Part shown: positions 24,175-55,923 of the stretch, piece after piece
Layout: every line of letters starts with the position of its first letter
Numbering within the stretch: the stretch's first letter is position 1
Assembly (NCBI GenBank): GCA_050943735.1
Contig: JBMNPT010000005.1
Coordinates: 4,209 to 68,208 of the forward strand
Reading direction: 5' to 3'
DNA length: 64,000 nt
Source of the DNA: Eubacteriales bacterium
GTDB taxonomy: Bacteria; Bacillota; Clostridia; Oscillospirales; RGIG577
The notes under the pieces: generated by a model
Told to the model about the DNA's origin: nothing
What the model saw: the letters and a program-made list of their open reading frames with translations, nothing else
The model's database searches: none
Made by a program: the position numbers and the translations under genes

Positions 24175-24184
24175 GGAGGAGACC

Positions 24185-24931
24185 ATGTTTACAGATCTGA
24201 ACCGGTACACCTGGGAAGAAGTGGCGGCCATGGATATGGAACACACCTATTATGTGCTGCCCATCAGCTCGCTGGAGCAGCATGGGAAACATCTGGCCAT
24301 GGGTGCGGATGATTTCATCCTGCAATGCGCGCTGAAAGAACTGTACAAGAAGGAAGAAATCACTGCCAATATGCTGTGCCTGCCCATTCTCCACTATGGC
24401 AACAGCCATGAGCATCTGGATTTTAAGGGCGTGGTGTCCTTCAGTTGCGACACCATTGTGGCCATCATTCGGGATATTCTGCGCTGCATGAAAATGCACG
24501 GAGTCAAAAATCTAATCATTCTCAACTCCCACGGCGGCAATTCCTCTTTGATTGATGCGTACGCCCAGGAGTGGGAAGTGGAATTTGGCATTCATGTGTA
24601 TACCATCAGCCTGTGGGCCCCCGGATTCTTTCGGGGAGCGGAGCTGGGTGTGGAAACGCCTCTGGCCCATGAAATCCACGCCGGTGAGATGGAGACCTCC
24701 ATCCTGATGTACGGGATGCCGGAAATGGTCCGCAAGGACAAAATCTCGGAAAAGTATGACGTTCGGCTGAATTTGAGAGAATATTACGCCGGTTGGAACA
24801 GCGCCGATCTCTCTCCTGACAACGGAGTGATGGGTGTGGCTTCCAAAGCCACCGTCCAAAAGGGTGAGGCCATTGTGAAATACATGGGCGACCGGATGTG
24901 TTCCTATTTGCTGGACATTCAGAATAGCTGA
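24185..24931 (+). CDS. creatininase-family amidohydrolase
   Basis: 248 aa. LPISSLEQHGKHLAMGAD and NSHGGN are motifs typical of the creatininase fold. Confidence 0.8.
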   Translation: MFTDLNRYTWEEVAAMDMEHTYYVLPISSLEQHGKHLAMGADDFILQCALKELYKKEEITANMLCLPILHYGNSHEHLDFKGVVSFSCDTIVAIIRDILRCMKMHGVKNLIILNSHGGNSSLIDAYAQEWEVEFGIHVYTISLWAPGFFRGAELGVETPLAHEIHAGEMETSILMYGMPEMVRKDKISEKYDVRLNLREYYAGWNSADLSPDNGVMGVASKATVQKGEAIVKYMGDRMCSYLLDIQNS

Positions 24932-26305: not shown

Positions 26306-26965
26306 ATGATGTGGGAATGGAATCAGGCAGTGATTCGCGGTGTATTGCGGGAAGATCCCTGTTACAGCCATTGTCAATATGGAGAGGATTTTTATTTGCT
26401 GGAAATGGGAGTGGCACGTGCCAGCGGCACCTGGGATGTGCTGCGTGTCATGCTCTCCCAGCGGCTGATGGTGGAAGAATTGCCTCAGGCCGGTGAATGG
26501 ATGGAAATTCGAGGACAGCTCCGCAGTTACAATCGGATGGAGACCGGACGAAGCAAACTACAGCTCATGGTGTTTGCCGGAGAAGCCCGGCGGGCGGTGG
26601 AATCTGAGGGATTTTGCAATCGGGTGGAACTGGAGGGGCTGATTTGTCGACAGCCCCATTATCGGGCCACGCCGCTGGGAAGGGAAATTTGCGATTTGAT
26701 GCTGGCAGTGAGTCGCTCCTATCACCGGTGTGATTACATACCCTGCATTCTTTGGGGCCGAAATGCCCGCTATATGGGACGGATGGGAATTGGAAGGCGG
26801 ATTCGGATCAATGGACGAATCCAGAGCCGGGAATATATCAAAATGGAAAATGGTTTGCCCATTCATCGGGTGACAATCGAAGTGAGTGCTGTGACGGGAC
26901 AGTTGGTGGAGGAGATTGACAATTGTCAGGAAATGGGGTATATTACAAATAATAATGATTCTTAG
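26306..26965 (+). CDS. tandem OB-fold, SSB-like protein
   Basis: Two internal repeats match the SSB pattern N.V.L.G.L...P....T..G......L.V.R. An example is NRVELEGLICRQPHYRATPLGREICDLMLAVSRSY..CDYIPCILWGRNARYM. There is no acidic SSB tail. Confidence 0.5.
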   Translation: MMWEWNQAVIRGVLREDPCYSHCQYGEDFYLLEMGVARASGTWDVLRVMLSQRLMVEELPQAGEWMEIRGQLRSYNRMETGRSKLQLMVFAGEARRAVESEGFCNRVELEGLICRQPHYRATPLGREICDLMLAVSRSYHRCDYIPCILWGRNARYMGRMGIGRRIRINGRIQSREYIKMENGLPIHRVTIEVSAVTGQLVEEIDNCQEMGYITNNNDS

Positions 26966-30251: not shown

Positions 30252-30327
30252 GCGGACGTAGCTCATCTGGTAGAGCGCCACCTTGCCAAGGTGGAGGTAG
30301 CGGGTTCGAGCCCCGTCGTCCGCTCCA
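30252..30327 (+). tRNA. tRNA-Gly (anticodon GCC)
   Basis: Hand-folded with acceptor GCGGACG/CGTCCGC, anticodon stem CCACC/GGTGG, loop TTGCCAA, T-loop TTCGAGC and an encoded CCA. Confidence 0.9.
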
Positions 30328-42762: not shown

Positions 42763-43419
42763 TTATCGCCGGGCGCGCCGGGAAACACGTTGTACTCTGG
42801 AAGGAGCGGTGGTACGCCGCCCAGAAGGGGCGAGAGGAGCATCGCTATAGGTAAGACGGGATGCTTGCCACAGCAAAATTGCATAGGCCAGCGTGAGCAG
42901 CACTGACAAAAAAGCCATCACAATGACCAGCAAAGTGGAGTAAATGTTTTGAATCTGCAAAGCGATGAGCGCAACCAGAATGATTAGTAAATTGCCAAAC
43001 AACAAAGCACTACGCAGGCGAATGACCCGGTCCCGAAATGCGTACTGACGCAGGTCAATGGACAGACGAACCAACCCGCTGCAAATAGAAAAGTCGGCGG
43101 CCAAAATGAGAAGGGTATTACAGACTTCCAATGGGTAAACCAACTGGTCAAAATATGGCAGGCTACTCAGTAAAGGATCAAAAGGGGCCAACAACAAATA
43201 CGACGTGATGGCCATGGCTCCTGCAAGAAAAAATCCTGCTCGCAAAAAATTGCGATTGGTACGGTACAGAGAAAGTACCCCCCACAACATCAGGGAAAGA
43301 CAAAGCAAATCCACCAGAAAGGTAAGTGGTCCTGTGCCTGTGGGAAGAATTCCCAGTAGGACTCCCCAGAATATTTTTTTGAGATGGAGCTGCCGTTCAG
43401 CAGCGGTCATTGGTTCCAT
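42763..43419 (-). CDS. hypothetical polytopic membrane protein with a highly basic C-terminal tail
   Basis: About 218 aa from MEPMTAAERQ with about 6 predicted TM helices and a C-terminal RRTTAPSRVQRVSRRARR. The upstream 5' extension of the track ORF (to 43737) is AT-rich non-coding. Promoter TTTACA-17-TATAAT on the minus strand at 43462-43490. Confidence 0.6.
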   Translation of the reverse strand: MEPMTAAERQLHLKKIFWGVLLGILPTGTGPLTFLVDLLCLSLMLWGVLSLYRTNRNFLRAGFFLAGAMAITSYLLLAPFDPLLSSLPYFDQLVYPLEVCNTLLILAADFSICSGLVRLSIDLRQYAFRDRVIRLRSALLFGNLLIILVALIALQIQNIYSTLLVIVMAFLSVLLTLAYAILLWQASRLTYSDAPLAPSGRRTTAPSRVQRVSRRARR

Positions 43420-43508
43420 AAGGTTTTTCCATTTCTGATTTGATAGATTCCATTGAGCTATATTATAGGGCAAATTTACTAATTTGTAAATACAAAAACA
43501 ACAAAATT

Positions 43509-43522
43509 CGAAAATTTGTTCG
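43509..43522. promoter_or_regulatory. LexA (Cheo/SOS) box 1, CGAAAATTTGTTCG
   Basis: 13 of 14 matches to the Firmicutes consensus CGAAC-N4-GTTCG. It lies 7 nt upstream of the -35. Confidence 0.6.
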
Positions 43523-43528
43523 ACTTTA

Positions 43529-43557
43529 TTGACATAAGATGGGAAATATTGTAAAGT
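43529..43557 (+). promoter_or_regulatory. promoter of the phage-like cluster regulator
   Basis: TTGACA, 17-nt spacer, TAAAGT. Confidence 0.5.
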
Positions 43558-43562
43558 AAAAT

Positions 43563-43576
43563 AGAACAAATGTTCT
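43563..43576. promoter_or_regulatory. LexA (Cheo/SOS) box 2, AGAACAAATGTTCT
   Basis: Perfect GAAC-N4-GTTC core, 6 nt downstream of the -10 and just upstream of RBS AAGGAGG. Confidence 0.7.
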
Positions 43577-43593
43577 AAAGGAGGTGCTTCATT

Positions 43594-43977
43594 ATGAATG
43601 CGGCACAGAAAATCGCGTATTTGAGTCAGTACAAACAAATAGATTTGGAAATTGATCGCATGATTCATGAAGTGGATGTGTGGAAAAAACGGTTGGAGCC
43701 TTTTTCTACAGAGGAGGAAAAAGTGAGGGTGATCCATTTACTGCGGCACATCAATCGGGAGATTGACCGATTGGTGGATCTGCGTGAAGCCATGGAACGC
43801 TCCATCCGTACTGTGGATGACAAAACTCTGCAGACCTTGTTGCGCTGCCGTTACATAGACGGGCTTACCTGGGAAGCGTTGGCGGAACAGATGGTCTATT
43901 CCTATCAGCATGTGTTTCGTCTGCACAAAAAAGCCATTGATCTTCTGGAACTGGACCAAGATGTGATACAATGCTAG
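43594..43977 (+). CDS. sigma-70 region-4-like HTH protein, phage late-gene activator candidate (positional analogue of PBSX Xpf)
   Basis: 127 aa. The C-terminal LLRCRYIDGLTWEALAEQMVYSYQHVFRLHKKAIDLL is a sigma region 4 HTH pattern. The N-terminus is a coiled coil. It is the first gene of the cluster. Confidence 0.7.
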   Translation: MNAAQKIAYLSQYKQIDLEIDRMIHEVDVWKKRLEPFSTEEEKVRVIHLLRHINREIDRLVDLREAMERSIRTVDDKTLQTLLRCRYIDGLTWEALAEQMVYSYQHVFRLHKKAIDLLELDQDVIQC

Positions 43978-44050
43978 TCCCTCTCTGTGCTACGGTATGT
44001 TTGCGGTCGGGAAACCGGCTGGCAATTCAATCACAGAGAGGAGAAGAGGA

Positions 44051-44218
44051 ATGAAAAAACTGGCAGATCAAAAGGAAATCCAGGCCTTTTGGACCTCTGT
44101 GATGCGCAGTGAGGAGGCAACCATCGCCGAACGCTTCAAAGCCTCTGAACTGCTGGCAAAAAACAGGGAAGAGGAGGCTGTGGATCTGAAACTCAAATGG
44201 TTCAAGGAAGACGAGTGA
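44051..44218 (+). CDS. 55-aa terminase small-subunit-like protein (C-terminal module only)
   Basis: It lies immediately upstream of, and overlaps, the terminase large subunit gene. ERFKASELLAKNREEE resembles the RLKALELLGK motif of small terminases. RBS GAGGAGAAGAGGA. Confidence 0.4.
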   Translation: MKKLADQKEIQAFWTSVMRSEEATIAERFKASELLAKNREEEAVDLKLKWFKEDE

Positions 44219-45444
44219 CAAAAGCACGTACTCTGCGGCGCGAGGTTTGCAATTCTTGGGTGTACAGTCAGGTGGATGACTACTCCCATCGGATTGAGGT
44301 GTACTGCGGAGGTGCGGGAAGTGGTAAGTCCTACGGCGCCATGCAGAAAATGCTTCTCAAAGCGCTCAACTACCGGCGGCGTGTGCTGGTGGTGCGCAAG
44401 GTGGCGGACACTCTGCGGGCCAGCGTATTTGAACTGCTTCTCCAATTGCTGCGGGACAGCGGTCTGTACGAAGTGGCCCGCATCCGGCGCAGCGAAATGC
44501 GTGTGACTCTGCCCGGCGGCAGTGAGTTCCTGTTCCGGGGGATTGACGACCCCGAAAAGGTGAAGTCCATCACTGGACTCACCGACATTGTCATTGAGGA
44601 AGCTACGGAACTGTCCCGGGAGGATTTCATTCAGCTCAATTTACGTCTGCGCTGCCTGGAGCCCTTTCCTCAGATTTATGTGCTGTTCAATCCCATCAGC
44701 AAAGCCAACTGGGTGTACGATCGATTTATTCTCCATCCACCCGAAAATTGCAGGCTGGTCCGCACTACCTGGAAGGACAACCGGTTCCTACCCGAAGAAT
44801 ATGGCAGGGAGCTGGAGACCATGGCCGAAACAGATCCCGTCAAGTACCGCATTTACGCGCTGGGAGAATTCGCCACGCTGGACCGGCTGGTATTTCCCCA
44901 GGTGGAGGTTCGGGCCATCTCCCCCCAGGAGGTGGAAGGGCTGCCTTTCTTCGGGGGACTGGATTTCGGCTACGTAAACGATCCTACCGCTTTGGTATGG
45001 GGACGGTATGATCGAACCAATCGTCGGATCTTCATTTTGGGGGAGTACTTTGGCAAGGGTATGCTCAATCGGCAGATCGCCGAAAAAATTCAACAGATGG
45101 GACTTTCCAAGGAAATCTGGACTGCCGACAGCAGTGAAATTAAGAGCATCGATGAGCTGCGTTCCCTGGGACTCTCCCGGGTGCGGGCCGCCCGGAAAGG
45201 TCCCGGCAGCGTTCGCTTTGGCCTGAGCTGGTTGGCAGGCAGAAGCCTGATCTTACAGGAGAACTGCCCCCGCTTGCTGGAGGAGTTCGAAAATTACACC
45301 TGGAAAAAAGATCCCCGTTCCGGGGAGTATTGCAATGAACCCATTGACAGCTGGAACCATGGCATCGATGCCCTGCGCTACGGATTGGAGCATCAGATGC
45401 GAGGCGGTGGCATGGAAGTGCTGAAATGGAACAAGGAGGTTTGA
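44197..45444 (+). CDS. terminase large subunit, PBSX/XtmB type
   Basis: Walker A VYCGGAGSGKSYG and Walker B-like LTDIVIEEATE, about 415 aa. An alternative GTG start at 44215 forms a GTGA overlap. Confidence 0.9.
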   Translation: MVQGRRVTKARTLRREVCNSWVYSQVDDYSHRIEVYCGGAGSGKSYGAMQKMLLKALNYRRRVLVVRKVADTLRASVFELLLQLLRDSGLYEVARIRRSEMRVTLPGGSEFLFRGIDDPEKVKSITGLTDIVIEEATELSREDFIQLNLRLRCLEPFPQIYVLFNPISKANWVYDRFILHPPENCRLVRTTWKDNRFLPEEYGRELETMAETDPVKYRIYALGEFATLDRLVFPQVEVRAISPQEVEGLPFFGGLDFGYVNDPTALVWGRYDRTNRRIFILGEYFGKGMLNRQIAEKIQQMGLSKEIWTADSSEIKSIDELRSLGLSRVRAARKGPGSVRFGLSWLAGRSLILQENCPRLLEEFENYTWKKDPRSGEYCNEPIDSWNHGIDALRYGLEHQMRGGGMEVLKWNKEV

Positions 45445-45445
45445 T

Positions 45446-46717
45446 ATGGCATTCACCAATGAGGAAATGGCCAGGACACTGGCCCGGGCGGTGGCCGAAC
45501 AAACTGATTTCGCCCAGCGCTGTCAGGTGGCCAGACGCTATTATCAGAATCGCAACGACATTCTCCACACCGGAGCGGTTCCCCGCTGGCAGACCCAGCC
45601 CAATCCCCTGCGCAACAGCGATGTGCGCATCAGCCACAACTGGCACAGCATTCTGGTCAATCAGAAAACATCCTATCTGTTCAGCTACGCGCCCACTCTG
45701 GATGTGGGAGATCGCAGGCTCAACGCTCGTCTGACCCAGATGCTGGGGGATGGATATGGAAAAATGATGAAGGATCTCTGTGTGGAGGCCAGCAACTGTG
45801 GGGTGGCATGGCTCTTCCTGTGGCTGGATGATGAACGGCAGCTGCAAATGCAGGTGATGGACAGCGAACAGATTGTCCCCATTTATTCGGATGATTTACA
45901 GAAAACCCTCAAGGCTGTCCTTCGTATTTACACCCAGCGGGATGAGGCCGATCAGCCGGTGACTCGATGCGAGCTGTGGGATGAGGAAACTATGCAGACC
46001 GGTCGTTGGAACGGCGGCCAATGGGTGCCTGACAATCAGCAGATCTACTATCATGGTATCGGTCAGATTCCCTTTATTCCCTTCTGGAACAATGGAGAGG
46101 GAACTGGCGACCTGGAGATGTACCAAGGTCTGATTGATCAATACGATCGGGTGGTGAGCGGATTTGCCAACGATCTGGCAGACATTCAGGAGGTGATCTT
46201 CGTCATCCGCAATTACGGAGGCGAGGATTTGGGGACCTTCCTGGGTGAGCTCAAACGGTACAAGGCCATCAAGGTGGACAGCGACGGCGGTAACAGCGGT
46301 GTGGACACCATGCAGATTCAGATTCCGGTGGAGGCTCGTATGGAGTTCCTGGAACTGCTCAAAAAGCAGATCTTTATCTCCGGTCATGGGGTATTCCCCG
46401 CTCAGGACAATCTGCCCAACACCAGCGGGGTGGCTTTGCAGTACATGTACAGTCTGCTGGAGATCAAAGCGGGCTTGCTGGAAGTGGAGTTCCGTCAGAG
46501 TCTGGCCCAACTGGCCCGTCTGCTGCTGCGGCACATGGGCTGCCGCAAAGAACTGACCATCCGTCAGACCTGGATCCGCAATGCCATCCGCAATGAGACG
46601 GAACTGGCGCAGATCTGTGCGGACAGCAGTCAGCTGCTCAGCCGTGAAACCATTCTGCGGCATCATCCCTGGGTGGAAGATCCACAGGAAGAGATGGAGT
46701 CGGACGGTCAGGAATGA
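45446..46717 (+). CDS. portal protein, SPP1 Gp6-like
   Basis: 423 aa. ARRYYQNRNDILH...LRNSDVRISHNWHSILVNQKTSYLF matches the Gp6-family N-terminal pattern. It follows the terminase gene. Confidence 0.85.
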   Translation: MAFTNEEMARTLARAVAEQTDFAQRCQVARRYYQNRNDILHTGAVPRWQTQPNPLRNSDVRISHNWHSILVNQKTSYLFSYAPTLDVGDRRLNARLTQMLGDGYGKMMKDLCVEASNCGVAWLFLWLDDERQLQMQVMDSEQIVPIYSDDLQKTLKAVLRIYTQRDEADQPVTRCELWDEETMQTGRWNGGQWVPDNQQIYYHGIGQIPFIPFWNNGEGTGDLEMYQGLIDQYDRVVSGFANDLADIQEVIFVIRNYGGEDLGTFLGELKRYKAIKVDSDGGNSGVDTMQIQIPVEARMEFLELLKKQIFISGHGVFPAQDNLPNTSGVALQYMYSLLEIKAGLLEVEFRQSLAQLARLLLRHMGCRKELTIRQTWIRNAIRNETELAQICADSSQLLSRETILRHHPWVEDPQEEMESDGQE

Positions 46718-46771
46718 ACATGTGGTGAGGGGAGGATCCCGGGTGTGTGGTGGGAAACAAGGAGGAATACC

Positions 46772-47215
46772 ATGGAACAGAATAACTTGTCTGCTGCCGC
46801 TGTACTGGCCCAGATTGTACAGCTGATGCAGCAATATGCGGGGATGCAGTCGGCACCAGCCGCTGGTATGCCCCAGAGCACTGGCGGAGATGATCCGCTG
46901 ACCCGTCTGCAAGAGGAAAACAGACAGCTGCAATCCCGTCTGCAGCTCAGCCAGCAGGATATGCTGCTGGAACGGGCTCTGCTGAAAGCAGGCTGCCGCA
47001 ATACCACTGCGGCCAAAGCTTTGGTACAGCCTCAGTGGCTGGAAGGAGAGCAGGCTTTGCAGCCTGAGGAGATTGTACAGGCTTTGATGGAAGAGGCCCC
47101 CTATTTGTTTGAAGAGCCTCAGCCTCTGGGCTATCGTCCTGTGGCCGGTCAGGGTCAGGACTCGGAAGAGGCTCTGCGGGAAATGATTCGCAAAGGTTTG
47201 AGAGGAGAGATGTGA
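46772..47215 (+). CDS. capsid scaffolding protein
   Basis: About 147 aa, helical and coiled coil (LQEENRQLQSRLQLSQQDMLLERALL). It sits between the portal and the major capsid. RBS AAGGAGG. Confidence 0.65.
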   Translation: MEQNNLSAAAVLAQIVQLMQQYAGMQSAPAAGMPQSTGGDDPLTRLQEENRQLQSRLQLSQQDMLLERALLKAGCRNTTAAKALVQPQWLEGEQALQPEEIVQALMEEAPYLFEEPQPLGYRPVAGQGQDSEEALREMIRKGLRGEM

Positions 47216-47216
47216 G

Positions 47217-48128
47217 ATGGCATTTAACACACTGGAATTTGCAAAGGTATTTCAGAAGGAACTGGACAAGCTGGTGGTGGCACAGTGCACCAGCGGCTGG
47301 ATGGAAAGCAACGCCGGTATGATTCAGTACAGCGGCGGTGATGAAATCAAAATTCCCATGCTGACTGTGGATGGTCTGGCGGATTATGATCGGGAAGATG
47401 GCTTTACCCGCGGTGCAGTCAATCTGAGCTTCCAGACCCTGAAGCTCAGCCAGGACAGAGGCAGAAGTTTTCAGATCGACGCCATGGATGTGGATGAAAC
47501 CAGCTTTGGCGCCAGCGTGAGCAATATTGTGGGAGAGTTTCAGCGCAGCCGCGTAGTACCTGAGATTGACAGCTATCGTTACAGCCGCATTGCTACGCTG
47601 TGCAGTGCAGACCATGCCACTACTTATACGGCGGATGCTTCTACCATTCTGACAACGCTGCGGTCCGATATTGAAAACATCTACGAAAAGGCCGGTGAAA
47701 TCGATCTGGTGATCACCCTGTCTTCCGCCGCAGCCAATCTGCTGGAAGGCAGCAGTGAATTCAACGCCATGGTGGACGCCGGTGATTTCAAGAGTGGAGA
47801 ATACTCCTGCCGCGTACGTTATTTCAATGGCAATCCCATTGTACGTGTCCCCAGTGCTCGTATGAAATCGGCCTATACCTTCTATGATGGTGTGACCGAA
47901 GGACAGACCGCCGGCGGTTTTGTGCCCGCCCCAGAAGCCAAGCAGATCAACTGGATCATCAGCAGCCGCACCGCTCCCATTGCAGTATCCAAAACCGATC
48001 AGGTGCGGATTTTCGATCCCCTGCACAACCAGAGCATGAACGCCTGGAAGGTGGATTACCGCAAGTACCATGATCTCTTTGTACCCACCAACAAGCTGGA
48101 TGAAATGTGGGTCAACATGGAGGGGTAA
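47217..48128 (+). CDS. major capsid protein (XkdG/YqbE-like)
   Basis: 303 aa, assigned by position and sequence style (MAFNTLEFAKVFQKELDK...). Confidence 0.8.
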   Translation: MAFNTLEFAKVFQKELDKLVVAQCTSGWMESNAGMIQYSGGDEIKIPMLTVDGLADYDREDGFTRGAVNLSFQTLKLSQDRGRSFQIDAMDVDETSFGASVSNIVGEFQRSRVVPEIDSYRYSRIATLCSADHATTYTADASTILTTLRSDIENIYEKAGEIDLVITLSSAAANLLEGSSEFNAMVDAGDFKSGEYSCRVRYFNGNPIVRVPSARMKSAYTFYDGVTEGQTAGGFVPAPEAKQINWIISSRTAPIAVSKTDQVRIFDPLHNQSMNAWKVDYRKYHDLFVPTNKLDEMWVNMEG

Positions 48129-48130
48129 TC

Positions 48131-48424
48131 ATGGATATGGAAGTCCTGGCACAGCGCCTCCTGCAGCGGGAACCGGCACTGGAAACCAGGGAGACCGCTC
48201 TGGAACGCCTGGAAGAGGCGGCCCAGCGGATTCGAAATTATACCCATCTGGATGAGGTGCCGGATGAACTGGAAGGGGTACTGCTCTCCATGGCACAGCG
48301 CCTGGAGGAAGAGGGCGTGGAAGCCATTTACGAAGGGGACACCAAGGTGCAGTACGCTCATACAGAGCCGGAAGCTCTATATTACTCCCAACTCAACCGG
48401 TTCCGAAAGAGGTGCGGACCATGA
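48131..48424 (+). CDS. head-tail connector protein (gp6-like/YqbG-like)
   Basis: 97 aa and helical. It is the first small ORF after the capsid gene. Confidence 0.6.
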   Translation: MDMEVLAQRLLQREPALETRETALERLEEAAQRIRNYTHLDEVPDELEGVLLSMAQRLEEEGVEAIYEGDTKVQYAHTEPEALYYSQLNRFRKRCGP

Positions 48425-48777
48425 CCAGTCGGATTCTACAGCGGCTGATGAATCAACGAGGAGACATCTGGCGCGGTGAAAAACGGGTGGAAAATGGTGT
48501 GCAATTTGTGGAATACCAACTGCTGCAGAGTGGCGTACCCTGCCGGGTATCCCAGATTGGCACTGGGCGTACCATCCTGAAAAAACCTCAGGGAGAGGAA
48601 CTCTCTGAAATTGAGCAGGAGCTCAAAGGCTTTTTTCCATGGGACGCAGATGTACAGAGTGGCGATCGGCTGGTGGTGACCCTGAACAAAACCCAGCACA
48701 TTCTGGAGGTGGGTGAGGTTTTTGTATACCAAAACTCCCACCGGGAGTGTAGACTGAGCCGTTTGCAGACGGTATGA
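48421..48777 (+). CDS. head closure / head-tail adaptor protein
   Basis: 118 aa with an ATGA overlap with the preceding ORF. Beta-rich pattern typical of SPP1 gp16-like proteins. Confidence 0.6.
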   Translation: MTSRILQRLMNQRGDIWRGEKRVENGVQFVEYQLLQSGVPCRVSQIGTGRTILKKPQGEELSEIEQELKGFFPWDADVQSGDRLVVTLNKTQHILEVGEVFVYQNSHRECRLSRLQTV

Positions 48778-48791
48778 AAGGAGAGGGTGAA

Positions 48792-49211
48792 ATGGAACAG
48801 CAAATTCGGCAGGCACTGGTTAAAGCACTGGGTGATGCCCTGCCCCAGTGCCCTCTTCACACCGAGCGGATGCCTCAGCATGGAATTCGAGACGGGCTGT
48901 GGATCTATCCAGCGGGGCTGGGTCTGGAAGGACGCATTGGCTGTCAGGAGGCCTGGTCACAATGGGAGATTCGCTATCTGCCGCCGATGGAAACACCCAG
49001 ACAAACCATGGTCGAACGACTCCGCCAAGTGGTGGAAGCTGTACAGACTTTGCAGCTGGACGACGGGCCCCTGCGGCCTGTCATCCAGCAGGCAGAGTGC
49101 GACGGTTCCATGGCAGTGGTGCTTTTGCGTGTGAGATGCAGGGTGCGCATTGAACAATCTTCTCCCATGATGCGCAAATTCACCTGGGAGATGGAAATGG
49201 AGGGAAATTGA
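48792..49211 (+). CDS. tail-completion/neck protein candidate
   Basis: 139 aa with RBS GGAGAGGG. It is the last ORF before the sheath gene. Function is assigned by position only. Confidence 0.5.
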   Translation: MEQQIRQALVKALGDALPQCPLHTERMPQHGIRDGLWIYPAGLGLEGRIGCQEAWSQWEIRYLPPMETPRQTMVERLRQVVEAVQTLQLDDGPLRPVIQQAECDGSMAVVLLRVRCRVRIEQSSPMMRKFTWEMEMEGN

Positions 49212-50495
49212 GTGAACAATACGGGAAATAAAACGTTGCCCGGCGTTTATGTGGATTTTATCAGCAGCCGCCCGCTCACCATTCAGGTGGGCAGTCAGGG
49301 GACTGTACTGCTGCCCATGGCGCTGGATTGGGGCGACAAGGGAAAGGTCACCGAAGTGGTGGCCGGAGATGATACACGTCTCTCTCTGGGATACAGCATG
49401 CAGGAGATTCTGCCTCTGCGGGAGGCTATGAAAAATGCTGACCGGGTACTGGTGTATAAGCTCAACGGCGGAGAAAAAGCTTCCGCGACACTGGGAAGCG
49501 GAACGGTAACTGCCGCTCTGCCCGGCAGCCGTGGAAATGCACTTTCTCTTCAGGTGACTGGCGAGGAAGCTCCCTTTGTGGTGGATACCTGGCTGGATGG
49601 TGTTCTGATGGACAGCCAGGAAATTTCGGAGTATTCCGAATTTCAGCCCAATGGGCTGGTGGAGATCAATGAGGCAGGCACTCCTGCCAAGGCTTTGGTC
49701 ACCCTTTCCGGCGGTACGGATGAAGAGGAACAGACCACCGACTGGGAGAGCTTTTTGCCATCCGCCCAGACCCTTTTCTTTGACACAATGGCTTGTATGA
49801 GTGACGAAGAATCGGTGAAGGAACAGGTGGTGTCTTTTGTACGGCTGATGCGGGAACAGGAAGGCAAAAAGATTCAGGCAGTGATGGCCAACAAGGCGGC
49901 CGATTACGAGGGTATCATCTCGGTACAGGGTGGCGTGGTACTGGAGGGGGATGAAATTCTCCCTGCGGAAACCGTATGCGCTTATATTGCCGGCATGACC
50001 GCGGGCGCTGCCATCAATGAGAGCTGCACCCATCACATTTACCAGGGTGCGGTGGATGTGACCAGTCGGATGACCCGCGCTCAAAAAGAAGAGGCAGTTG
50101 GTCAGGGTCACATGATTCTGGATGTGGACGCCGCCGGTCAGGTGTATGTGGTCTATGATATCAATACCCTGCGCTCCGGTCTGCAGGTTGACTTCCGTAA
50201 AAACCGGGTGCTGCGGGTACTGGATGGGATTCATCAGGATGTGAAGTCTCTCTTTGAGGGCAGCTATCTGGGTAAGGTGAGCAATGACCCCAACGGCCGC
50301 AGTCTGCTGCGGGGCAGTTTGGTGGAATACTTTGGCAAGCTGGAACAGATGGGCGCCATCACCGGCTTCCAGAGCGATGACATTTCGGTAGAGCCCGGCA
50401 GCGATTCCGACAGTGTGATCATTGGCATTGCTGTGGCTCCGGTGGACAGTTGTGAAAAATTCTACATCACCGTACAGGTGAACCAGGAGGTGTAA
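49212..50495 (+). CDS. contractile tail sheath protein (XkdK-like)
   Basis: 427 aa. The N-terminal LPGVYVDF is typical of sheath proteins. GTG start after RBS GGAGGG. Confidence 0.88.
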   Translation: MNNTGNKTLPGVYVDFISSRPLTIQVGSQGTVLLPMALDWGDKGKVTEVVAGDDTRLSLGYSMQEILPLREAMKNADRVLVYKLNGGEKASATLGSGTVTAALPGSRGNALSLQVTGEEAPFVVDTWLDGVLMDSQEISEYSEFQPNGLVEINEAGTPAKALVTLSGGTDEEEQTTDWESFLPSAQTLFFDTMACMSDEESVKEQVVSFVRLMREQEGKKIQAVMANKAADYEGIISVQGGVVLEGDEILPAETVCAYIAGMTAGAAINESCTHHIYQGAVDVTSRMTRAQKEEAVGQGHMILDVDAAGQVYVVYDINTLRSGLQVDFRKNRVLRVLDGIHQDVKSLFEGSYLGKVSNDPNGRSLLRGSLVEYFGKLEQMGAITGFQSDDISVEPGSDSDSVIIGIAVAPVDSCEKFYITVQVNQEV

Positions 50496-50496
50496 T

Positions 50497-50970
50497 ATGG
50501 CCAATTATGTGAGATTGCGGGATACCATCTCCTCCAAGGAGGGACGGGCCTACATCACCATCAATGGGAAAAATAGAGAACTGTTTGAAATCAGCCGCCT
50601 CAAGGCTTCTTTGCAGTACAAAATTCAAAAACGTCAGATGCTGGGCCATCGTATGGTGCAGCACAAGGTGGTAGGAGCTGAGGGCACCGGTGAAATGACA
50701 ATGTATTTCATGAACAGCGAAATGCTACAGCTGGCCCGTCAGTACATCAAAGAGGGCAACCCGGGCTCTCTCAAACTGCAGGTGGTCAATGAGGATAGCG
50801 CCAGCAGTGTGGGCCGTCAAGAAGTGATGCTGCTCAACGTAATGCTGGAACAGGTGCCCATCACCTGTCTGGATGACAGCTCGGACGATCCGGTAACCAT
50901 CAGCTGCAGCTTCACCTTTGACGATATCGAAGTGCTGGAGAGCTTTGCTCTGCCGGAAAACTATCGATAA
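50497..50970 (+). CDS. tail tube protein (XkdM-like)
   Basis: 157 aa, directly after the sheath gene. Sequence includes EGRAYITINGKNRELFEISRLKA... Confidence 0.85.
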   Translation: MANYVRLRDTISSKEGRAYITINGKNRELFEISRLKASLQYKIQKRQMLGHRMVQHKVVGAEGTGEMTMYFMNSEMLQLARQYIKEGNPGSLKLQVVNEDSASSVGRQEVMLLNVMLEQVPITCLDDSSDDPVTISCSFTFDDIEVLESFALPENYR

Positions 50971-50982
50971 CAGGTGCGGACG

Positions 50983-51492
50983 ATGGAACCGGAGGTTTAC
51001 GCCGCACGTTGGGCGGAAGAGTCAGAACCGTTGGCGGAAGAACTGATACAGCTTCAGGAGATGGAAGATTCCATTCAGCAACAGGAATCATGGATGGAAC
51101 CGGTGCAGGATGTGGGGGCACAGGTCGCCGGGGAGGAGAGCCTTCAGAGTGCCGAATCCCAGGAAATGCTTGCTGCGGTATCGGAGATTTCTGTGGATGG
51201 AGAAGAAACTACAGGGAGTGGAGAATGGAGCCCTCAAAATCCGCTCCTATTTACGGAGTCTGCTCCGGCAGCCTCGACTACACAGCAGCTTTGGACTCAA
51301 ACACTACTCCAGGCAGCCGCTTGGAATACTCTACGCCAGGAGTCCAGTCAGCAGGTGGTGAACAACATCGCGCCCAACATTGTGATCGAAATGGGCAATC
51401 CGGTGGCAGGTACCACTCCCCAGGCTGTGGCTGAGCAGATTCGCCGGACCTTGCGGGAAGAAATGCTGTGCTGTGCAGAGGGGGTGTACTAA
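50983..51492 (+). CDS. 169-aa acidic E/Q/S-rich protein in the tape-measure position (possible miniature tape measure)
   Basis: Intact ORF with SD-like AGGTG 6 nt upstream and a TAATG overlap with the next gene. The C-terminal NIAPNIVIEMGNPVAGTTPQAVAEQIRRTLREEM resembles, from memory, tape-measure C-termini. Function is uncertain. Confidence 0.5.
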   Translation: MEPEVYAARWAEESEPLAEELIQLQEMEDSIQQQESWMEPVQDVGAQVAGEESLQSAESQEMLAAVSEISVDGEETTGSGEWSPQNPLLFTESAPAASTTQQLWTQTLLQAAAWNTLRQESSQQVVNNIAPNIVIEMGNPVAGTTPQAVAEQIRRTLREEMLCCAEGVY

Positions 51493-52082
51493 TGGAATAT
51501 TGTGTGTATTTGACAGAGGGAGCCAGACGGTATCCACTGCCGGTCAATCCTCAGAATATACGGTCCAGTTGGGAGAGTGGTGCCCGGCAGACCGCGGTAT
51601 TGGGGATTGGACAGGTGGTACTGCCCGGAGAAGAAACCCTGGAGCATTTTACCTTTACCGTTCCGCTGGACAATGAGTGGGTGTCGCGGCTGCGCCGGTG
51701 GCGTTCGCAGGGTACTGTACTCACTATGCAGGCGATAGGCAAACAGCTTTACCTGCAGCGGGAAGTGATTCTGTATCGAATGACTCAGACCCAGCTGGCT
51801 GGCCGGGAAGAGGAGTGTGAAGTGGAATTGGAATGGATGGAATACCGGGGGTACCGCAAAGCGGAGCTGCTGCGTAAGCAGTGGCAGGAGGAAGGAAGTC
51901 TTTCTGCCCCGGTATCCTCCGGCGCTACCTATACGGTGGTCAAAGGGGATTGTCTGTGGCGCATTGCGCAGCGAATGCTGGGGGATGGCAGCCGGTATGG
52001 GGAAATTTATCAGCTCAATCAGGACATCATCACCAATCCCAATTTGATCTATCCGGGGCAAGTTCTGCGGCTGCCCGGCTGA
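51492..52082 (+). CDS. LysM-domain tail protein (XkdP-like)
   Basis: The N-terminal YPLPVNPQNI...FTFTVPL resembles XkdP-type tail proteins. The C-terminal LysM is TYTVVKGDCLWRIAQR...IYPGQVLRLPG. Confidence 0.8.
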   Translation: MEYCVYLTEGARRYPLPVNPQNIRSSWESGARQTAVLGIGQVVLPGEETLEHFTFTVPLDNEWVSRLRRWRSQGTVLTMQAIGKQLYLQREVILYRMTQTQLAGREEECEVELEWMEYRGYRKAELLRKQWQEEGSLSAPVSSGATYTVVKGDCLWRIAQRMLGDGSRYGEIYQLNQDIITNPNLIYPGQVLRLPG

Positions 52083-52098
52083 CAGAAAGGAGAACTTC

Positions 52099-52587
52099 AT
52101 GGGAACTTTGGAAGGATTTTTACACCCGGAGGAAATGGGACCCGTTCGGGTCCCCCTTTCTCCCCGGTTTCGGGATGAACAGGGAAATCCCATTCAATGG
52201 GAGCTGCGTCCTGTATCTGCCCGGGAAAACGAAGCGCTGATCCGCCGGCACACCCGACAGGATACCCAGGGAAACTGGAGATTGGATCGAGCAGCCTATC
52301 GCATGGCCTTTGCAGCCTGCGGGGTGGGGTGTCCCGACTTGGAGGATGCCCAGCTGCAGCAGCGTTACCACGCGCTGGGACGGGAAGATCTGTTGGGGCG
52401 GATGCTGCTGGCGGGAGAATTTGCGGCTCTCTATGAAAAAGTGAGCCGTATCAGCGGCTTTGGACACTCTCTGGAAGATGAGGTGGACGAAGCAAAAAAA
52501 GAATCCGGCACGGTGAGTGGGAATTCGCCTGCGCCCACTATGCCCTTCAGCGGCATCACCTGCTGCCCGGACAGTTCGCAGCCCTGA
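52099..52587 (+). CDS. XkdN-like tail assembly chaperone (short, zero-frame form)
   Basis: SPRFRDEQGNPIQWELRPVSARENEAL...LLGRMLLAGEFAALYEKVSRISGF is an XkdN-family pattern. It contains an A7 slippery site at 52494-52500. Confidence 0.75.
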   Translation: MGTLEGFLHPEEMGPVRVPLSPRFRDEQGNPIQWELRPVSARENEALIRRHTRQDTQGNWRLDRAAYRMAFAACGVGCPDLEDAQLQQRYHALGREDLLGRMLLAGEFAALYEKVSRISGFGHSLEDEVDEAKKESGTVSGNSPAPTMPFSGITCCPDSSQP

Positions 52588-52643
52588 GCAGGCGGGAAAA
52601 AGCATTCATCTGGGCTTCGGCCCTGGTGGAAAAGGAGGGATGA
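52494..52643 (+). other. predicted -1 programmed frameshift site (A_AAA_AAA) and 47-codon -1 frame extension of the chaperone
   Basis: The zero frame reads GCA AAA AAA GAA. The -1 frame from 52500 reads RIRHGEWEFACAHYALQRHHLLPGQFAALSRREKAFIWASALVEKEG and stops at 52641-52643, 1 nt before the next ATG. Confidence 0.55.
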
Positions 52644-52644
52644 C

Positions 52645-53598
52645 ATGCAGCTGTGGCTGGAAAACAGACAAACCGGTCAGATGGTGGAAATCACCGGCGC
52701 TTGTGTGGAAATTCAGCTGTGTCATAAGCGCAACAATGGAGCCTCCGTTTTGGATGTGACCTGGCTGTGTGAAGAGGTGTTCTTTGAAAATGGATGCACC
52801 ATTCGGCTCACCGATGGACAGCAATGTGCTTTTCACGGGAGGCTTTTCAGATGGAGCCGATCCAGCGACGGATTGGTTCACCTGCACGCGTACGATCAGC
52901 TGCGCTATCTAAAAGCCAAGGACACCATGCTTTTGCAAGGCCGTTCCCTGGCCAGCCTATTGCGGGAAATGTGCCGGGTCTTTCAGCTGAAAGCGGGCAC
53001 TATGGAAGATCCGCCGGGCTTGGTACAGGATGAAATGCTGGTGGGTCAAACGCTGCTGGACATTCTGTATCGCAAAATCGCAGAAGTACAGCGCCTCACC
53101 GGCAAAGCGTATATTCTGCGGGACGAGGACGGAGCCATCTGTCTTCGGGCGGAGGATTCTCTGCATCTGCCGCTGTTGCTGGCGGATGAGACCACCTGCC
53201 TTTCCTATGAGGTGGAGAGAGATATTGACCGGGATACCTGCAATCGGGTGGTACTGGCTCACGAAAGCATCGTGTTTGGCATGCGCAAGGTCTATGAGAC
53301 AGCGGACGCCCAGCAGACCCAGCAGTATGGGGTTTTGCAGTATTATCAGCGGGTGAATCAGAATCTCACGTCAGCTCAAATCCGCGCCATCGGTGAAAAT
53401 CTGCTGGCGGAAAAAAAGGGAGAGAGATACCGCATATCCCTGTCGGCGATCTCTGATCTCTCTGTACAGGGTGGGAGTGTGATTGGCGTTACACTGGATG
53501 GCCTGGGACAGGGATTGTATCGGGTTTTGCAGGTCACCCATCGGCTGCAGAGCGGACGGGAGACCATGGAATTGGAGGTGGAAAATATTGCTGGATGA
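52645..53598 (+). CDS. XkdQ/YqbQ-like baseplate hub (gpD-like) protein
   Basis: 317 aa, assigned by position and sequence pattern (LHAYDQLRYLKAKDT..., GKAYILRDEDGAICL). Confidence 0.75.
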   Translation: MQLWLENRQTGQMVEITGACVEIQLCHKRNNGASVLDVTWLCEEVFFENGCTIRLTDGQQCAFHGRLFRWSRSSDGLVHLHAYDQLRYLKAKDTMLLQGRSLASLLREMCRVFQLKAGTMEDPPGLVQDEMLVGQTLLDILYRKIAEVQRLTGKAYILRDEDGAICLRAEDSLHLPLLLADETTCLSYEVERDIDRDTCNRVVLAHESIVFGMRKVYETADAQQTQQYGVLQYYQRVNQNLTSAQIRAIGENLLAEKKGERYRISLSAISDLSVQGGSVIGVTLDGLGQGLYRVLQVTHRLQSGRETMELEVENIAG

Positions 53599-53851
53599 AA
53601 TTAAGGAAATCGCCCAGCGTGTGGTGGACAGCAACACCTTTTTACAGCTGGGAACCGGACGGGTGCGTTCGGTCAGCCCCTTGACGGTGGAATTGACCTC
53701 CAATGGGCTGGTGCTGCCCAATGTGATGTTGATGGTAGGAGCCTCTCTGAGTGAGAGCGACCGCTTTCAAAATCTGGAAGGCGGAGAGCAGCTGTTGCTG
53801 CTGGGCCCCGCTTGCGGCGGGAAATTTGCAGTATTGGACGTGATGCTATGA
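53588..53851 (+). CDS. XkdR-like small baseplate protein (DUF2577-like)
   Basis: 87 aa from TTG 53588, which lies 7 nt after GGAGGTG. Sequence LLDEIKEIAQRVVDSN...GRVRSVSPLTVEL. Confidence 0.65.
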   Translation: MLDEIKEIAQRVVDSNTFLQLGTGRVRSVSPLTVELTSNGLVLPNVMLMVGASLSESDRFQNLEGGEQLLLLGPACGGKFAVLDVML

Positions 53852-54237
53852 CCGGCGCAGGATATGAAACCATTTGGGATAAAGCCCTGGAAGGCCCCAG
53901 CCGCACCTTCTGTATTTCTCTGGAAAACGGAAGGATGCAGGGAATGTGTGACGGCGTGGAAAGCGTACGTCAGGCGGTGTGGAAATGCCTGGCCACCCAG
54001 CGGGGAGAGCATTTGATCTATGGCCCCTATTACGGGCTGGATCGAAATGCACTGGTACAGGCGGATCCCGCCCAATTGCAGGCTGCCGCGGAACAGGCTG
54101 TCCGCAGCGCTCTATTGCGGGACCCCAGAGTCTGGTCGGTGGATCGGGTACAGGCCCTCCGTCAGGGTGACAGCCTTTCCCTGACGGTGGAAGTGACCAC
54201 CCGGTTTGGTACCGTCCAGTTGACAGAGGAGGTGTGA
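53848..54237 (+). CDS. XkdS-like baseplate protein (DUF2634-like, gpW/gp25-like)
   Basis: 129 aa with an ATGA overlap. VRQAVWKCLATQRGEHLIYGPYYGL is typical of this family. Confidence 0.7.
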   Translation: MTGAGYETIWDKALEGPSRTFCISLENGRMQGMCDGVESVRQAVWKCLATQRGEHLIYGPYYGLDRNALVQADPAQLQAAAEQAVRSALLRDPRVWSVDRVQALRQGDSLSLTVEVTTRFGTVQLTEEV

Positions 54238-54238
54238 G

Positions 54239-55315
54239 ATGTTTGAAGAAATGACCTTTGATAAATTGATGGAGGGAATGCTTTCCCATGTGAGTGACAC
54301 CCTGGACAAACGGGAAGGCAGTGTGGTGTACGACATGCTTTCCCCTATGGCGGCAGAACTTGCCGGGCATTACAGCCAGCTGGGAGCGGCACTGGAACTG
54401 CTGTTCTGGGAAACCTCCTCCGGCATTTGGTTGGATCGCTTGGGAGAACAGTTTGGCATTCCCCGCCGTCAGGCTACCAATGCAGTGTACCGGGGTGTTT
54501 TTACCGATCAGGAGGACTTGCCTGCTCAGGTGGAAACCGGCAGTCGGTTTCGCTGGGAGGAATATACTTTCGCGGTAGAGGATTCTCTGGGAGAGGGAAA
54601 GTATACGCTGGTTTGTGAGCAACCGGGAAGCGGTGCCAATGCGGCTACCGGAACCATTCTCCCGGTGCTCAATCTGCCCTCTCTGCAGTCGGCAGTGCTG
54701 GAACAGCTGCTGGAAGAAGGAACTGACCAGGAAAGCGATGAACAGTACAGGGCCCGGGCGATGGAGCTGCTGGCGCGTCCCGCCTTTGCGGGCAATATAT
54801 CTGCCTATCAGGAAGAGACGTTGTCCATTGGGGGAGTGGGATGTGTCAAGGTTTTCCCCGTCTTTGATGGAGGCGGTACAGTGGGGCTGGTGATTGGAAA
54901 CGCCCAGGGACGTGCAGTGGATGAAATGGTACTGCAAAAAGTACAGGAGCATTATGCGCTGGAGGGAGAACAGAGCGTCACTCCCATTGGCCATCAGGTG
55001 ACTGTCAAAAGCTGTGTGGATCGGACTGTACCAGTGGAGCTGGCGGTGGATTTGGTGCCGGAGGCTGACTGGAGCAGTGTACAGTCACAGGTTCAGAATC
55101 GGGTGGCCCAATGGATGAGTCAGATTGATTTTGAGGAAGAGAGAGTGTTTGTAGCGCGGCTGATGGCGGCAGTACTGGAGGTGGACGGTGTGGCTGACGT
55201 CCCCATGGCTCAGGTGAAGCTGGATGGCAAAAATGCCAATCTGGTGCTGCAAAAAGATATGGAAACTTTTGAAACACCGGTCTGCGGAACAGTGACGGTA
55301 AGGCAGGTGAGCTGA
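54239..55315 (+). CDS. baseplate J-like protein (XkdT-like)
   Basis: 358 aa. The N-terminus is typical of baseplate J (MLSHVSDTLDKREGSVVYDMLSPMAAEL). Confidence 0.85.
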   Translation: MFEEMTFDKLMEGMLSHVSDTLDKREGSVVYDMLSPMAAELAGHYSQLGAALELLFWETSSGIWLDRLGEQFGIPRRQATNAVYRGVFTDQEDLPAQVETGSRFRWEEYTFAVEDSLGEGKYTLVCEQPGSGANAATGTILPVLNLPSLQSAVLEQLLEEGTDQESDEQYRARAMELLARPAFAGNISAYQEETLSIGGVGCVKVFPVFDGGGTVGLVIGNAQGRAVDEMVLQKVQEHYALEGEQSVTPIGHQVTVKSCVDRTVPVELAVDLVPEADWSSVQSQVQNRVAQWMSQIDFEEERVFVARLMAAVLEVDGVADVPMAQVKLDGKNANLVLQKDMETFETPVCGTVTVRQVS

Positions 55316-55316
55316 T

Positions 55317-55874
55317 TTGTGGTGTGAAGAGGAAATTCGCCTGCAGGAACATTTGCCTCAGTGGTATGCCGGGATCCGTGAGGCGGCGCTGATTCAGCAG
55401 GGAGCCCAGACAGAACTGGAAAACTTCCGCGTGACATTGCACGATGGTTTGCGGACCATCTGTACCTTGGCTCTGGAACCTACTGTTTTGGAGATTTACC
55501 GACGCATGTTTCAGCTGGAACCACAGAGCCATCCGGAAAAGCAGATGGATATTATTCGTTCCTGTTTTCAAAGCCGGCTGCCCATCAATCAGAATCGGGT
55601 GGAGCAGGTGGGCATGACTCTGATGGGGGAAAACAGTCAACTCCGATTGGATATCGACAGAGAAAAATATATCTGTCATGCCAAGTATAAGGCCGATATG
55701 TCCCAAAACAGAGAAGAGACCATTTACGCGAAGCTGCGGGCTATGATCCCAGCCAATATGATTCTTTCTCTGGCCTATGATTACGTGGAATGGGGACAAA
55801 TTCAGCACATCACCTGGCAGCAGGCAGCCACCCTCACCTGGGATGGACTGCGGCAGCAAGGGGATTCACTATAG
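55317..55874 (+). CDS. XkdU/YmfQ-like tail protein (DUF2313-like)
   Basis: 185 aa, TTG start. LPQWYAGIREAALIQQGAQTELENF is a family-typical N-terminus. It is the last gene of the cluster. Confidence 0.7.
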   Translation: MWCEEEIRLQEHLPQWYAGIREAALIQQGAQTELENFRVTLHDGLRTICTLALEPTVLEIYRRMFQLEPQSHPEKQMDIIRSCFQSRLPINQNRVEQVGMTLMGENSQLRLDIDREKYICHAKYKADMSQNREETIYAKLRAMIPANMILSLAYDYVEWGQIQHITWQQAATLTWDGLRQQGDSL

Positions 55875-55890
55875 AGAGCCGCAAGGCGGG

Positions 55891-55923
55891 AAAACGGATG
55901 GGGAAAATCTCCATCCGTTTTTC
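55891..55923 (+). terminator. intrinsic terminator ending the phage-like cluster
   Basis: ACGGATGGGG/CTCCATCCGT stem followed by T5. Confidence 0.8.

Follow-up and report, generated by a model that had tools for sequence, protein, structure and literature searches.

A compact head and contractile-tail gene cluster in a clostridial genome as a candidate domesticated phage-like particle locus

Introduction

The present study asks what a compact, phage-like gene cluster is doing in the chromosome of an uncultured, gut-type Eubacteriales bacterium, and whether it still belongs to a phage or has become the property of its host. The cluster lies in a stretch of 64,000 nucleotides (assembly GCA_050943735.1, contig JBMNPT010000005.1, positions 4,209 to 68,208, forward strand), the whole of which is called the window here and supplies the coordinates below. 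Nineteen tightly packed genes at 43594-55874, all on the + strand, encode a head and a contractile tail, and a twentieth, divergent gene for a membrane protein brings the element to about 13 kb, of which the operon takes about 12 kb. An original prediction had read these 19 co-directional open reading frames (ORFs) as a domesticated particle locus, and all of them exist and most match the roles it gave them in Pfam and PHROGs. The patterns found lead us, with considerable confidence, to a selected, host-owned particle locus, and on balance we read it as a domesticated remnant of a PBSX-type myovirus, now part of the host chromosome and selected to make a phage-like particle.

PBSX and FpGTA have been counted as the only two systems resembling gene transfer agents (GTAs) in Gram-positive bacteria (PMC12946183), and GTA-type packaging of short host fragments has been described in the related gut Clostridia families Ruminococcaceae, Oscillospiraceae and Christensenellaceae, mostly without an identified locus, with candidate clusters in Coprocola (PMC12946183; bioRxiv 10.64898/2026.07.08.737213). 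Literature searches found no description of the architecture or family of the window locus, which is a tangible candidate, defined by its sequence and built differently, around a contractile tail.

Inheritance and selection

Relatives of the locus (L numbers denote the loci compared) share its reduced form. The closest by sheath protein (52–57% identical; L008, L009, L016 and L013) have the identical reduced layout and end points, and this is true as well of L020, whose large terminase (TerL) is 78% identical, and of further members (L017, L018 and L021-L024) reached through TerL and TagA. The order of all 19 genes, together with the divergent membrane-protein gene, recurs in L008, L009, L016, L021, L022, L013, L017, L018 and L020, and the architecture is found in about three, and at least three, deep lineages and in fewer than 12 distinct variants. 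A search of genome contigs with the sheath yielded relatives of 34–42% identity only (Paenibacillus, Brevibacillus), and viral contigs gave matches at 35–41% identity only.

The element lies directly upstream of tagA in the window, L013, L017 and L018, with a shared right-flank order of tagA, thyX, tmk and genes for LPG synthase C, GNAT, DJ-1, 5-FTHF cyclo-ligase, an Rce1-like protein and YceG. Between the two same-site lineages nine syntenic flanking host genes, all on the downstream (tagA) side, have 56% amino-acid identity and 15 comparable element proteins 45%. An outgroup, L019, 49–51% identical to both, keeps the downstream synteny with no element and has an ABC transporter at that position. 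This distribution fits an element that would have been host-owned since before the split of at least two lineages of genus or deeper rank. In the L008 lineage the element occupies a different site, between a sigma/anti-sigma pair and DUF1292/SNF genes.

Purifying selection is seen most directly in the unsaturated pair L008 and L021, with a pooled synonymous rate (dS) of 0.22 and a pooled ratio of nonsynonymous to synonymous rates (dN/dS) of 0.068. No gene exceeds 0.32, the highest being the miniature tape measure discussed below; values of 0.04 or less were obtained for capsid, TerL, portal, tube and YqbQ, with the head and packaging genes at 0.02–0.04. Two flanking host genes of the same pair have dS of 0.10–0.26, similar to that of the element. 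More distant pairs, with dS saturated (>1) and dN still far below dS, give qualitative support only. No frameshifted or gene-lacking copy was present among the element-bearing contigs examined. The maintenance by selection proposed originally is upheld by the same gene set in divergent lineages, at the same site and under constraint, and nothing was found of the opposing scenario, in which relatives would carry an entire prophage here and show relaxed selection (dN/dS close to 1) or frameshifts. Codon usage of the element is indistinguishable from that of the window's host genes: the G+C fraction at third codon positions is 0.62 in the element and 0.64 in the host, and relative synonymous codon usage correlates at r = 0.96, with the host halves among themselves at 0.98, in agreement with the host-like composition first noted by eye.

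A second compact family of head and contractile-tail genes was seen in L033, L034 (OFHA01000412.1) and L035, for example at L034:1813-17751, with capsid proteins 51–52% and sheaths 33–35% identical to those of the window. There a divergent HTH/Peptidase_S24 (CI/LexA-like) repressor gene adjoins the packaging genes, the small terminase (TerS) has 125 aa, and the tail genes run in the order tube, tail assembly chaperone (TAC), LysM, YqbQ, a second Phage_TAC_5 gene, a 349-aa protein of no family, DUF2577, gp25, Baseplate J and a 187-aa gp48-like protein. No long tape measure lies between tube and LysM in this family, so rearranged or short tape-measure layouts may be more widespread.

Packaging and head genes

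Gene assignments come from scans with Pfam, PHROGs and NCBIfam over all 20 element genes, with the start codons of several ORFs refined by the gene calls made independently for L001, a Logan contig of identical sequence; the scans give most of the 19 ORFs the roles proposed earlier, six of them via weak or indirect matches. The operon opens with a late-gene regulator of 127 aa, of sigma region 4/DUF1492/RinA-like type (43594-43977; phrog_36, E 5e-20, with weak DUF1492, Sigma70_r4 and RinA matches), followed by a miniature TerS of 55 aa (44051-44218), TerL with the Walker A motif GGAGSGKS (44215-45444; Terminase_3, E 8e-54, plus Terminase_3C), an SPP1-type portal (45446-46717; PF05133, E 3e-99), a scaffold protein (46772-47215; phrog_194 and a weak Phage_scaffold match) and the major capsid protein (47217-48128; phrog_422, E 6e-96). 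The last is at most 47% identical to capsid proteins of cultured phages, and its homologs were found in phages of 26–64 kb. Three neck proteins complete the module: a head-tail adaptor (48131-48424; phrog_132), a head-tail adaptor/stopper (48421-48777; phrog_615) and a tail terminator (48792-49211), whose orthologs match PF20765, Phage_tail_terminator_8.

The 55-aa ORF, described earlier as TerS-like, is on alignment evidence a genuine small-terminase fragment; the proposed homology stands, and is now corrected to the C-terminal part of a Terminase_2-type TerS of the 192-aa kind. Its full length can be aligned to residues 135-191 of the TerS encoded by locus L046, a Terminase_2 protein of 192 aa (Smith-Waterman z = 13.7, 0 of 1000 shuffles), with weaker matches to the corresponding region in two other TerS proteins. 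Against the 148-aa TerS of L014, hhalign gave only a weak alignment (probability 7% over 20 columns), and Pfam gave no match at E up to 10. Orthologs have 55–66 aa once the start is placed 3′ of a regulatory box formerly read as coding. Relative to the 192-aa protein about 134 N-terminal residues, the N-terminal two-thirds, are missing. Terminase_2-type TerS proteins carry a helix-turn-helix for DNA recognition in their N-terminal part, and loss of this part predicts packaging with no sequence preference.

The locus that supplied the full-length TerS (L046:303-15839) is of siphophage type, with an IstB-like ATPase, SSB, the 192-aa TerS, TerL and portal, and its tape-measure position is held by a large ORF of no family and at least 995 aa, which runs into the end of the locus. 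Its TerL is 60% identical to that of the window, and by this comparison the TerL lineage of the window evidently circulates in real phages with different tails.

Tail genes, tape measure and chaperone

The tail module begins with a contractile sheath (49212-50495; Phage_sheath_1, Phage_sheath_1C, Gp18_domIII_N and phrog_279) and the tube (50497-50970; DUF2001, E 3e-36), after which come an acidic protein of 169 aa (50983-51492), an XkdP-like baseplate protein with a C-terminal LysM domain (51492-52082; LysM E 2e-11, phrog_380) and an XkdN-type TAC (52099-52587; Phage_TAC_5, E 2e-32). Baseplate genes fill the remainder: a YqbQ/XkdQ-type hub (52645-53598; PF24032, E 8e-65), an XkdR-like small baseplate or spike protein (53588-53851; weak DUF2577 and phrog_579, start from the L001 gene call), a gp25-type sheath initiator (53848-54237; PF10934, E 1e-17), a Baseplate J wedge protein (54239-55315; PF04865, E 9e-48) and a short XkdU/Mu gp48-like wedge protein (55317-55874; phrog_521, weak Phage_Mu_Gp48), which has 185 aa as against 268 aa in related phages. 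The PBSX tail and baseplate families XkdK, M, N, P, Q, R, S, T and U are all present, the gp48 match being weak. The claim that the layout is that of PBSX from xpf to xkdU consequently holds for the families and fails for the 169-aa tape measure, the placing of the TAC gene after the LysM gene and the truncated TerS. This displacement of the TAC gene, giving the order tube, 169-aa protein, LysM and TAC, is common to all members of the family.

The 169-aa protein matched no family in the scans. Its last 45 or so residues align with the C-termini of tape measures of 619 and 631 aa (L011, L014), sharing the motif APNI.I.FGDV.E.ADV..VA..L...L.EE....EGV, which is also present in orthologs of 175–268 aa, and since it keeps the C-terminal motif of long tape measures it is taken to be a miniaturized one. 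The tape measure sets the length of a phage tail at about 1.5 Å per residue, so that 169 aa would give a tail of roughly 25 nm and the members of 175–268 aa would reach some 40 nm at most. A stubby contractile tail of about 25–40 nm, as compared with roughly 90 nm in related phages, is predicted from this short protein combined with a chaperone and frameshift system that are intact and with sheath, tube and baseplate genes that are under constraint.

The frameshift system had escaped the original prediction, as had the divergent membrane-protein gene and two LexA-like boxes described below. An apparent gap of 57 nt 3′ of the TAC gene is filled by a hidden extension in the −1 frame, which follows a slippery A-run (52494-52500) and forms with it a feature conserved in relatives (52494-52643, + strand); the frame is open to 52643, two bases 5′ of the YqbQ start codon. 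The slippery sequence is A_AAA_AAA or A_AAA_AAC in the window, L008, L009, L013, L017 and the phage L011, and in each case the same loci have behind it a conserved extension, CAHYAL..LH.LPG.FA.L.R.EK.FI.AS; no copy has lost either feature. A conserved hidden frameshift ORF of this kind would be hard to reconcile with decay.

Promoter region, operator boxes and membrane protein

The operon is probably under DNA-damage control, in which LexA would act at two putative boxes that flank a promoter-like site, TTGACA-17-TAAAGT (43529-43557, + strand; 10/12 match), whose TTGACA hexamer is conserved in L020, L008 and L016. Box 1, CGAAAATTTGTTCG (43509-43522, no strand assigned), stands directly 5′ of the −35 hexamer and is the sole match with one mismatch to CGAAC-N4-GTTCG in the 64 kb; the equivalent at the same place in L020 is CGAAAAAATGTTCG. 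Box 2, AGAACAAATGTTCT (43563-43576, likewise no strand), lies 3′ of the −10 hexamer and 5′ of the ribosome-binding site. Within the promoter region no other sequence fits the Firmicutes LexA (Cheo) consensus CGAAC-N4-GTTCG as well as these two do, and the exact core GAAC-N4-GTTC has just two occurrences in the window, in box 2 and at 54395-54406. The latter, GAACTGCTGTTC (+ strand), is within the Baseplate J gene and most likely a chance match. A 13-mer, AGAACAAATGTTY, just 3′ of the promoter −10, occupies the same promoter position in L020, L008, L016, L021 and L022; it was present in 8 of 45 loci, all of them element-bearing, from three lineages and with the 13-mer in this place, and was absent from the remaining 37.

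In the L008 lineage a second operator copy, AGAACAAATGTTT (L008:3452-3464, L016:2618-2630, L021:3255-3267), lies about 25 nt 5′ of the ribosome-binding site of the miniature TerS gene. Read as coding by gene callers, it had inflated the TerS-like ORF to 94–98 aa; translation probably starts at a TTG, which leaves about 66 aa. Its position suggests that in this lineage the second box would guard the late genes directly. Part of the lineage also has an Xre-type HTH gene (111–113 aa) between the membrane-protein gene and the regulator (L008:2529-2870, L021:2332-2788, L022:113-569), followed in L021 and L022 by a 43-aa ORF, and L016, at the same chromosomal site, has neither; the Xre-type gene looks like a recent regulatory add-on. 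No Xre-type repressor was found in the window, where the divergent position is taken by the membrane-protein gene.

That gene, the twentieth of the element (42763-43419, − strand), encodes 218 aa with six predicted helices, and its product is 31–33% identical to a 196-aa counterpart whose gene L008 and L016 carry at the equivalent place and in the same orientation. The family scans and a fold search with an AlphaFold (AF2) model (pLDDT 80.6) gave no family match and no significant fold match, and a full HMMER pass found only 2 representatives among 1.84 billion proteins. The gene is nonetheless constrained (dN/dS 0.066). Its promoter-like site, TTTACA-17-TATAAT (43462-43490, − strand; 11/12), is the best promoter match in the region and is kept in four loci, the window, L020, L008 and L016; a role as holin is disfavored by this constitutive-looking promoter.

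Boundaries and neighboring genes

Junctions within the operon are overlaps or spacings of 0–16 nt except for three gaps of 54–73 nt, among them the one 3′ of the TAC gene, close to the coupled junctions described at the outset. Integrase, repressor, replication, fiber, holin and lysin families had no match in the locus in Pfam, PHROGs or NCBIfam, and no direct or att-like repeats were found bracketing it, in accord on both counts with the original prediction. The operon ends at an intrinsic terminator (55889-55923, + strand; 16-bp stem, dG −28.6 kcal/mol, z −5.1), spotted by eye and confirmed by folding, its loop exceeding the limit of the automated terminator scan. As this terminator follows directly on the XkdU-like gene and is itself followed by tagA, the position of xkdV, the fiber or receptor-binding gene, is empty. 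Host flanks with terminators of their own had been proposed: the family scan gives tagA, thyX, tmk and more housekeeping genes on the right, beyond the operon terminator, and on the left there is purD with a hairpin terminator, the gene being carried over from the earlier annotation, with its protein outside the scans. The nearest named relatives of TagA are from Candidatus Enterenecus, at 56% identity.

Elsewhere in the window there are two tRNA genes (16228-16298 and 30252-30324, both + strand; Rfam RF00005), neither of which adjoins the element, so that neither is a candidate integration site for it. A tetrahydrofolate (THF) riboswitch (13579-13678, + strand; Rfam RF01831, 95.5 bits) precedes an ORF of 184 aa (13736-14290). 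A gene for a 219-aa SSB-domain protein (26306-26965, + strand), with an N-terminal extension of about 100 aa that has no family match, adjoins a GntR regulator and a creatininase-family gene. Long − strand ORFs at 16444-24246 (up to 1038 aa, no family match) were considered as extra phage genes and rejected as antisense shadows, since they overlie + strand genes judged from their translations to be of BMP-type ABC-transporter and amidohydrolase-like kind; such shadows are a trap for ORF-based reading in a GC-rich genome.

Proposed explanation and alternatives

How such a locus might work can be outlined from its genes. A sigma-A-type promoter between two LexA-type boxes would drive the RinA/Xpf-like late regulator. 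With LexA removed upon DNA damage, this regulator would be made and would in turn drive the 18 downstream genes as one unit to the terminator at 55889-55923. A procapsid would be built from portal, scaffold and capsid protein, and TerL with the 55-aa TerS fragment would fill heads with no sequence preference, i.e. with host DNA. Neck proteins would join the head to a contractile tail whose length the 169-aa tape measure would set, assisted by the chaperone in its normal and frameshifted forms. Functions for release, and receptor-binding proteins if there are any, would be encoded elsewhere in the genome, as in RcGTA and FpGTA, and the divergent membrane protein would have an accessory role.

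What the particle is for is a narrower question, and transfer as by a GTA and killing as by PBSX are not separable from sequence alone. The GTA-like reading, of a vehicle for host DNA, is modestly favored on two grounds, that constraint is strongest on the genes for packaging and head and that the locus comes with no targeting module, and we advance it tentatively. Features expected of a GTA were found, namely a structural cluster with no integration, replication or lysogeny modules, inherited vertically and under purifying selection. An intact temperate myovirus would look otherwise, as the lysogeny, replication, fiber and lysis modules are absent and the tape measure and TerS are truncated. 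More speculative is the possibility that this is the first GTA with a contractile tail, vertically inherited and switched by LexA, with host DNA in its heads, a tail of about 25–40 nm and the membrane protein as a new accessory factor, which would serve for instance in release control or self-immunity.

Several points weigh against a functional, domesticated particle. The proteins of the element have diverged at about 2.5 times the rate of the adjoining housekeeping genes, the family is rare and the comparative sample small, and all relatives are short metagenome contigs. Tape measures of 169–268 aa are far shorter than any known in a working contractile tail, and the gene is also the least constrained of the element. 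The locus has no fiber or receptor-binding, holin or endolysin gene, and an incomplete scan of about 43 kb of flank saw host metabolism genes only, with no fiber or lysis genes. LexA binding is predicted from the Firmicutes consensus, and the box could instead serve another dimeric regulator.

The alternative that survives best, and which we consider unlikely, is a killer particle (phibacin) like PBSX, set free with its head and tail when SOS-induced cells lyse, adsorbing to competitors and killing them by sheath contraction, any packaged host DNA being an undelivered by-product. Its tail and baseplate are the PBSX/skin set (Phage_TAC_5, YQBQ, DUF2577, Sheath_initiator, Baseplate_J), relatives of the window TerL are named 'PBSX family' by NCBI, the putative SOS wiring resembles PBSX induction and all tail genes are under purifying selection. 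Against it, the locus has no fiber or receptor-binding gene at the place of xkdV, an XkdU-like protein of reduced length and no lysis cassette. The head and packaging genes, needless for pure killing, are constrained as strongly as the tail, and a tail this short may fail to cross a Gram-positive wall.

Selection for a different task in the cell, be it releasing DNA for biofilm or nutrient use or delivering protein, is improbable. It would account for a locus that is selected yet has no target-recognition module, and the LysM baseplate protein could give generic peptidoglycan binding, but no positive evidence points to it and no precedent is known for a capsid-bearing particle with such a role. 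Slightly less probable again is a selfish, helper-dependent element or satellite that would make its own virion body and borrow fibers, lysis, replication or mobilization from a co-resident phage. The missing fibers and lysis are functions that a helper could supply, and the L008 lineage does have the element at a different chromosomal site with an acquired Xre-type gene by the regulator. Against it stand the absence of integrase, replication gene and att repeats, an identical site in two lineages with flanks of 56% identity, dS equal to that of the host flank, fully host-like codon usage and a TerS whose truncation argues against recognition of its own DNA. An inert prophage remnant whose decay is still to come, as the many lost phage functions and the deletion-like tape measure and small terminase might suggest, is very improbable given genes intact in all copies across lineages with 56%-identical flanks, a pooled dN/dS of 0.068, a preserved hidden frameshift ORF, conservation of the operator and both promoters, and dS values that exclude the related contigs being one recent clone.

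Domestication of a PBSX-type myovirus as a host-owned particle thus remains our preferred explanation, and it carries with it three oddities: a contractile tail whose tape measure has only some 25% of the usual length, a TerS cut to its C-terminal 55 residues, and an apparent direct LexA wiring of a phage late regulator that would bypass the phage repressor cascade. If true, it would represent an independent route of domestication from such a phage, and the miniature tape measure, the TAC-after-LysM order and the membrane protein would be markers for finding more loci.

Comparison with known systems

R-type tailocins (pyocin R, diffocin and clostridial forms) are, like the window locus, chromosomal contractile-tail modules kept by selection, and tailocins are SOS-induced. 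They have no capsid or packaging genes and carry fibers and lysis cassettes, whereas the window locus has genes for head and packaging, and these show the strongest constraint; the TerL, portal, scaffold and capsid genes show that the locus is not a tailocin. Nor is it a phage satellite (PICI/cfPICI), as it has no integrase, replication module or att sites and has its own complete tail module.

Among phages and prophages, L011 and L014, canonical PBSX-like myophages or prophages from metagenomes, have a sheath 45% and a tube 67% identical to those of the window and share the chaperone, LysM protein, YqbQ, gp25 and Baseplate J, as well as, in L011, the slippery site. Their order differs, running from tube to TAC, a small frameshift ORF, a tape measure of 619–631 aa and LysM, and they have a 268-aa gp48-like protein, fiber genes, XkdX, a full 148-aa TerS and another head module with a Mu F-like protein.

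RcGTA of Alphaproteobacteria is similar in organization, being a compact head-tail cluster of about 12–15 kb with no integrase or replication genes, vertically inherited under purifying selection and host control (putative here), with a TerS that has no DNA-binding part and with fiber and lysis genes outside the main cluster. Its proteins are unrelated and from another phylum, its tail is of the non-contractile siphovirus type, and it is controlled by CtrA/GafA and quorum sensing, not by the SOS response; packaging and transfer have been demonstrated there and would be predictions here. FpGTA of Faecalibacterium is closer in its host, as a candidate GTA in gut Clostridia of the Oscillospirales, and consists of ten podovirus-like ORFs with no sheath, tube or tape measure (PMC12946183, Nat Commun 2026). 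Its particles and 8.5–9 kb of packaged DNA have been shown experimentally, its lysis and fiber genes are in a second operon and its TerS has no DNA-binding domain, a feature noted for RcGTA and FpGTA alike (PMC12946183). The window locus, a candidate particle, differs from FpGTA in having the full contractile-tail set.

PBSX, a defective prophage of Bacillus subtilis, is likewise among the close known systems. Shared are the sigma-like late regulator in first place, then terminase, SPP1-type portal, scaffold, capsid, sheath and tube, the XkdN-type chaperone, the LysM protein and homologs of YqbQ/XkdQ, XkdR, XkdS, XkdT and XkdU, and both loci are chromosomal, non-replicating and, for the window, probably SOS-linked. 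The PBSX order of xkdM, xkdN, xkdO (the long tape measure) and xkdP does not recur here, XkdO having about 1,300 aa as against 169 aa, and PBSX has xkdV-X, xepA, xhlA/B and xlyA, with no equivalents in the window, which has no xre either. An Xre-type repressor acts over the late regulator in PBSX, where the window has putative LexA boxes directly on the regulator promoter, and PBSX has about 28 kb compared with 13 kb for an element with a 55-aa TerS and a conserved divergent membrane protein. Judged by its genes, the locus belongs with the domesticated phage-like particle loci, as a system that is not homologous to RcGTA or FpGTA.

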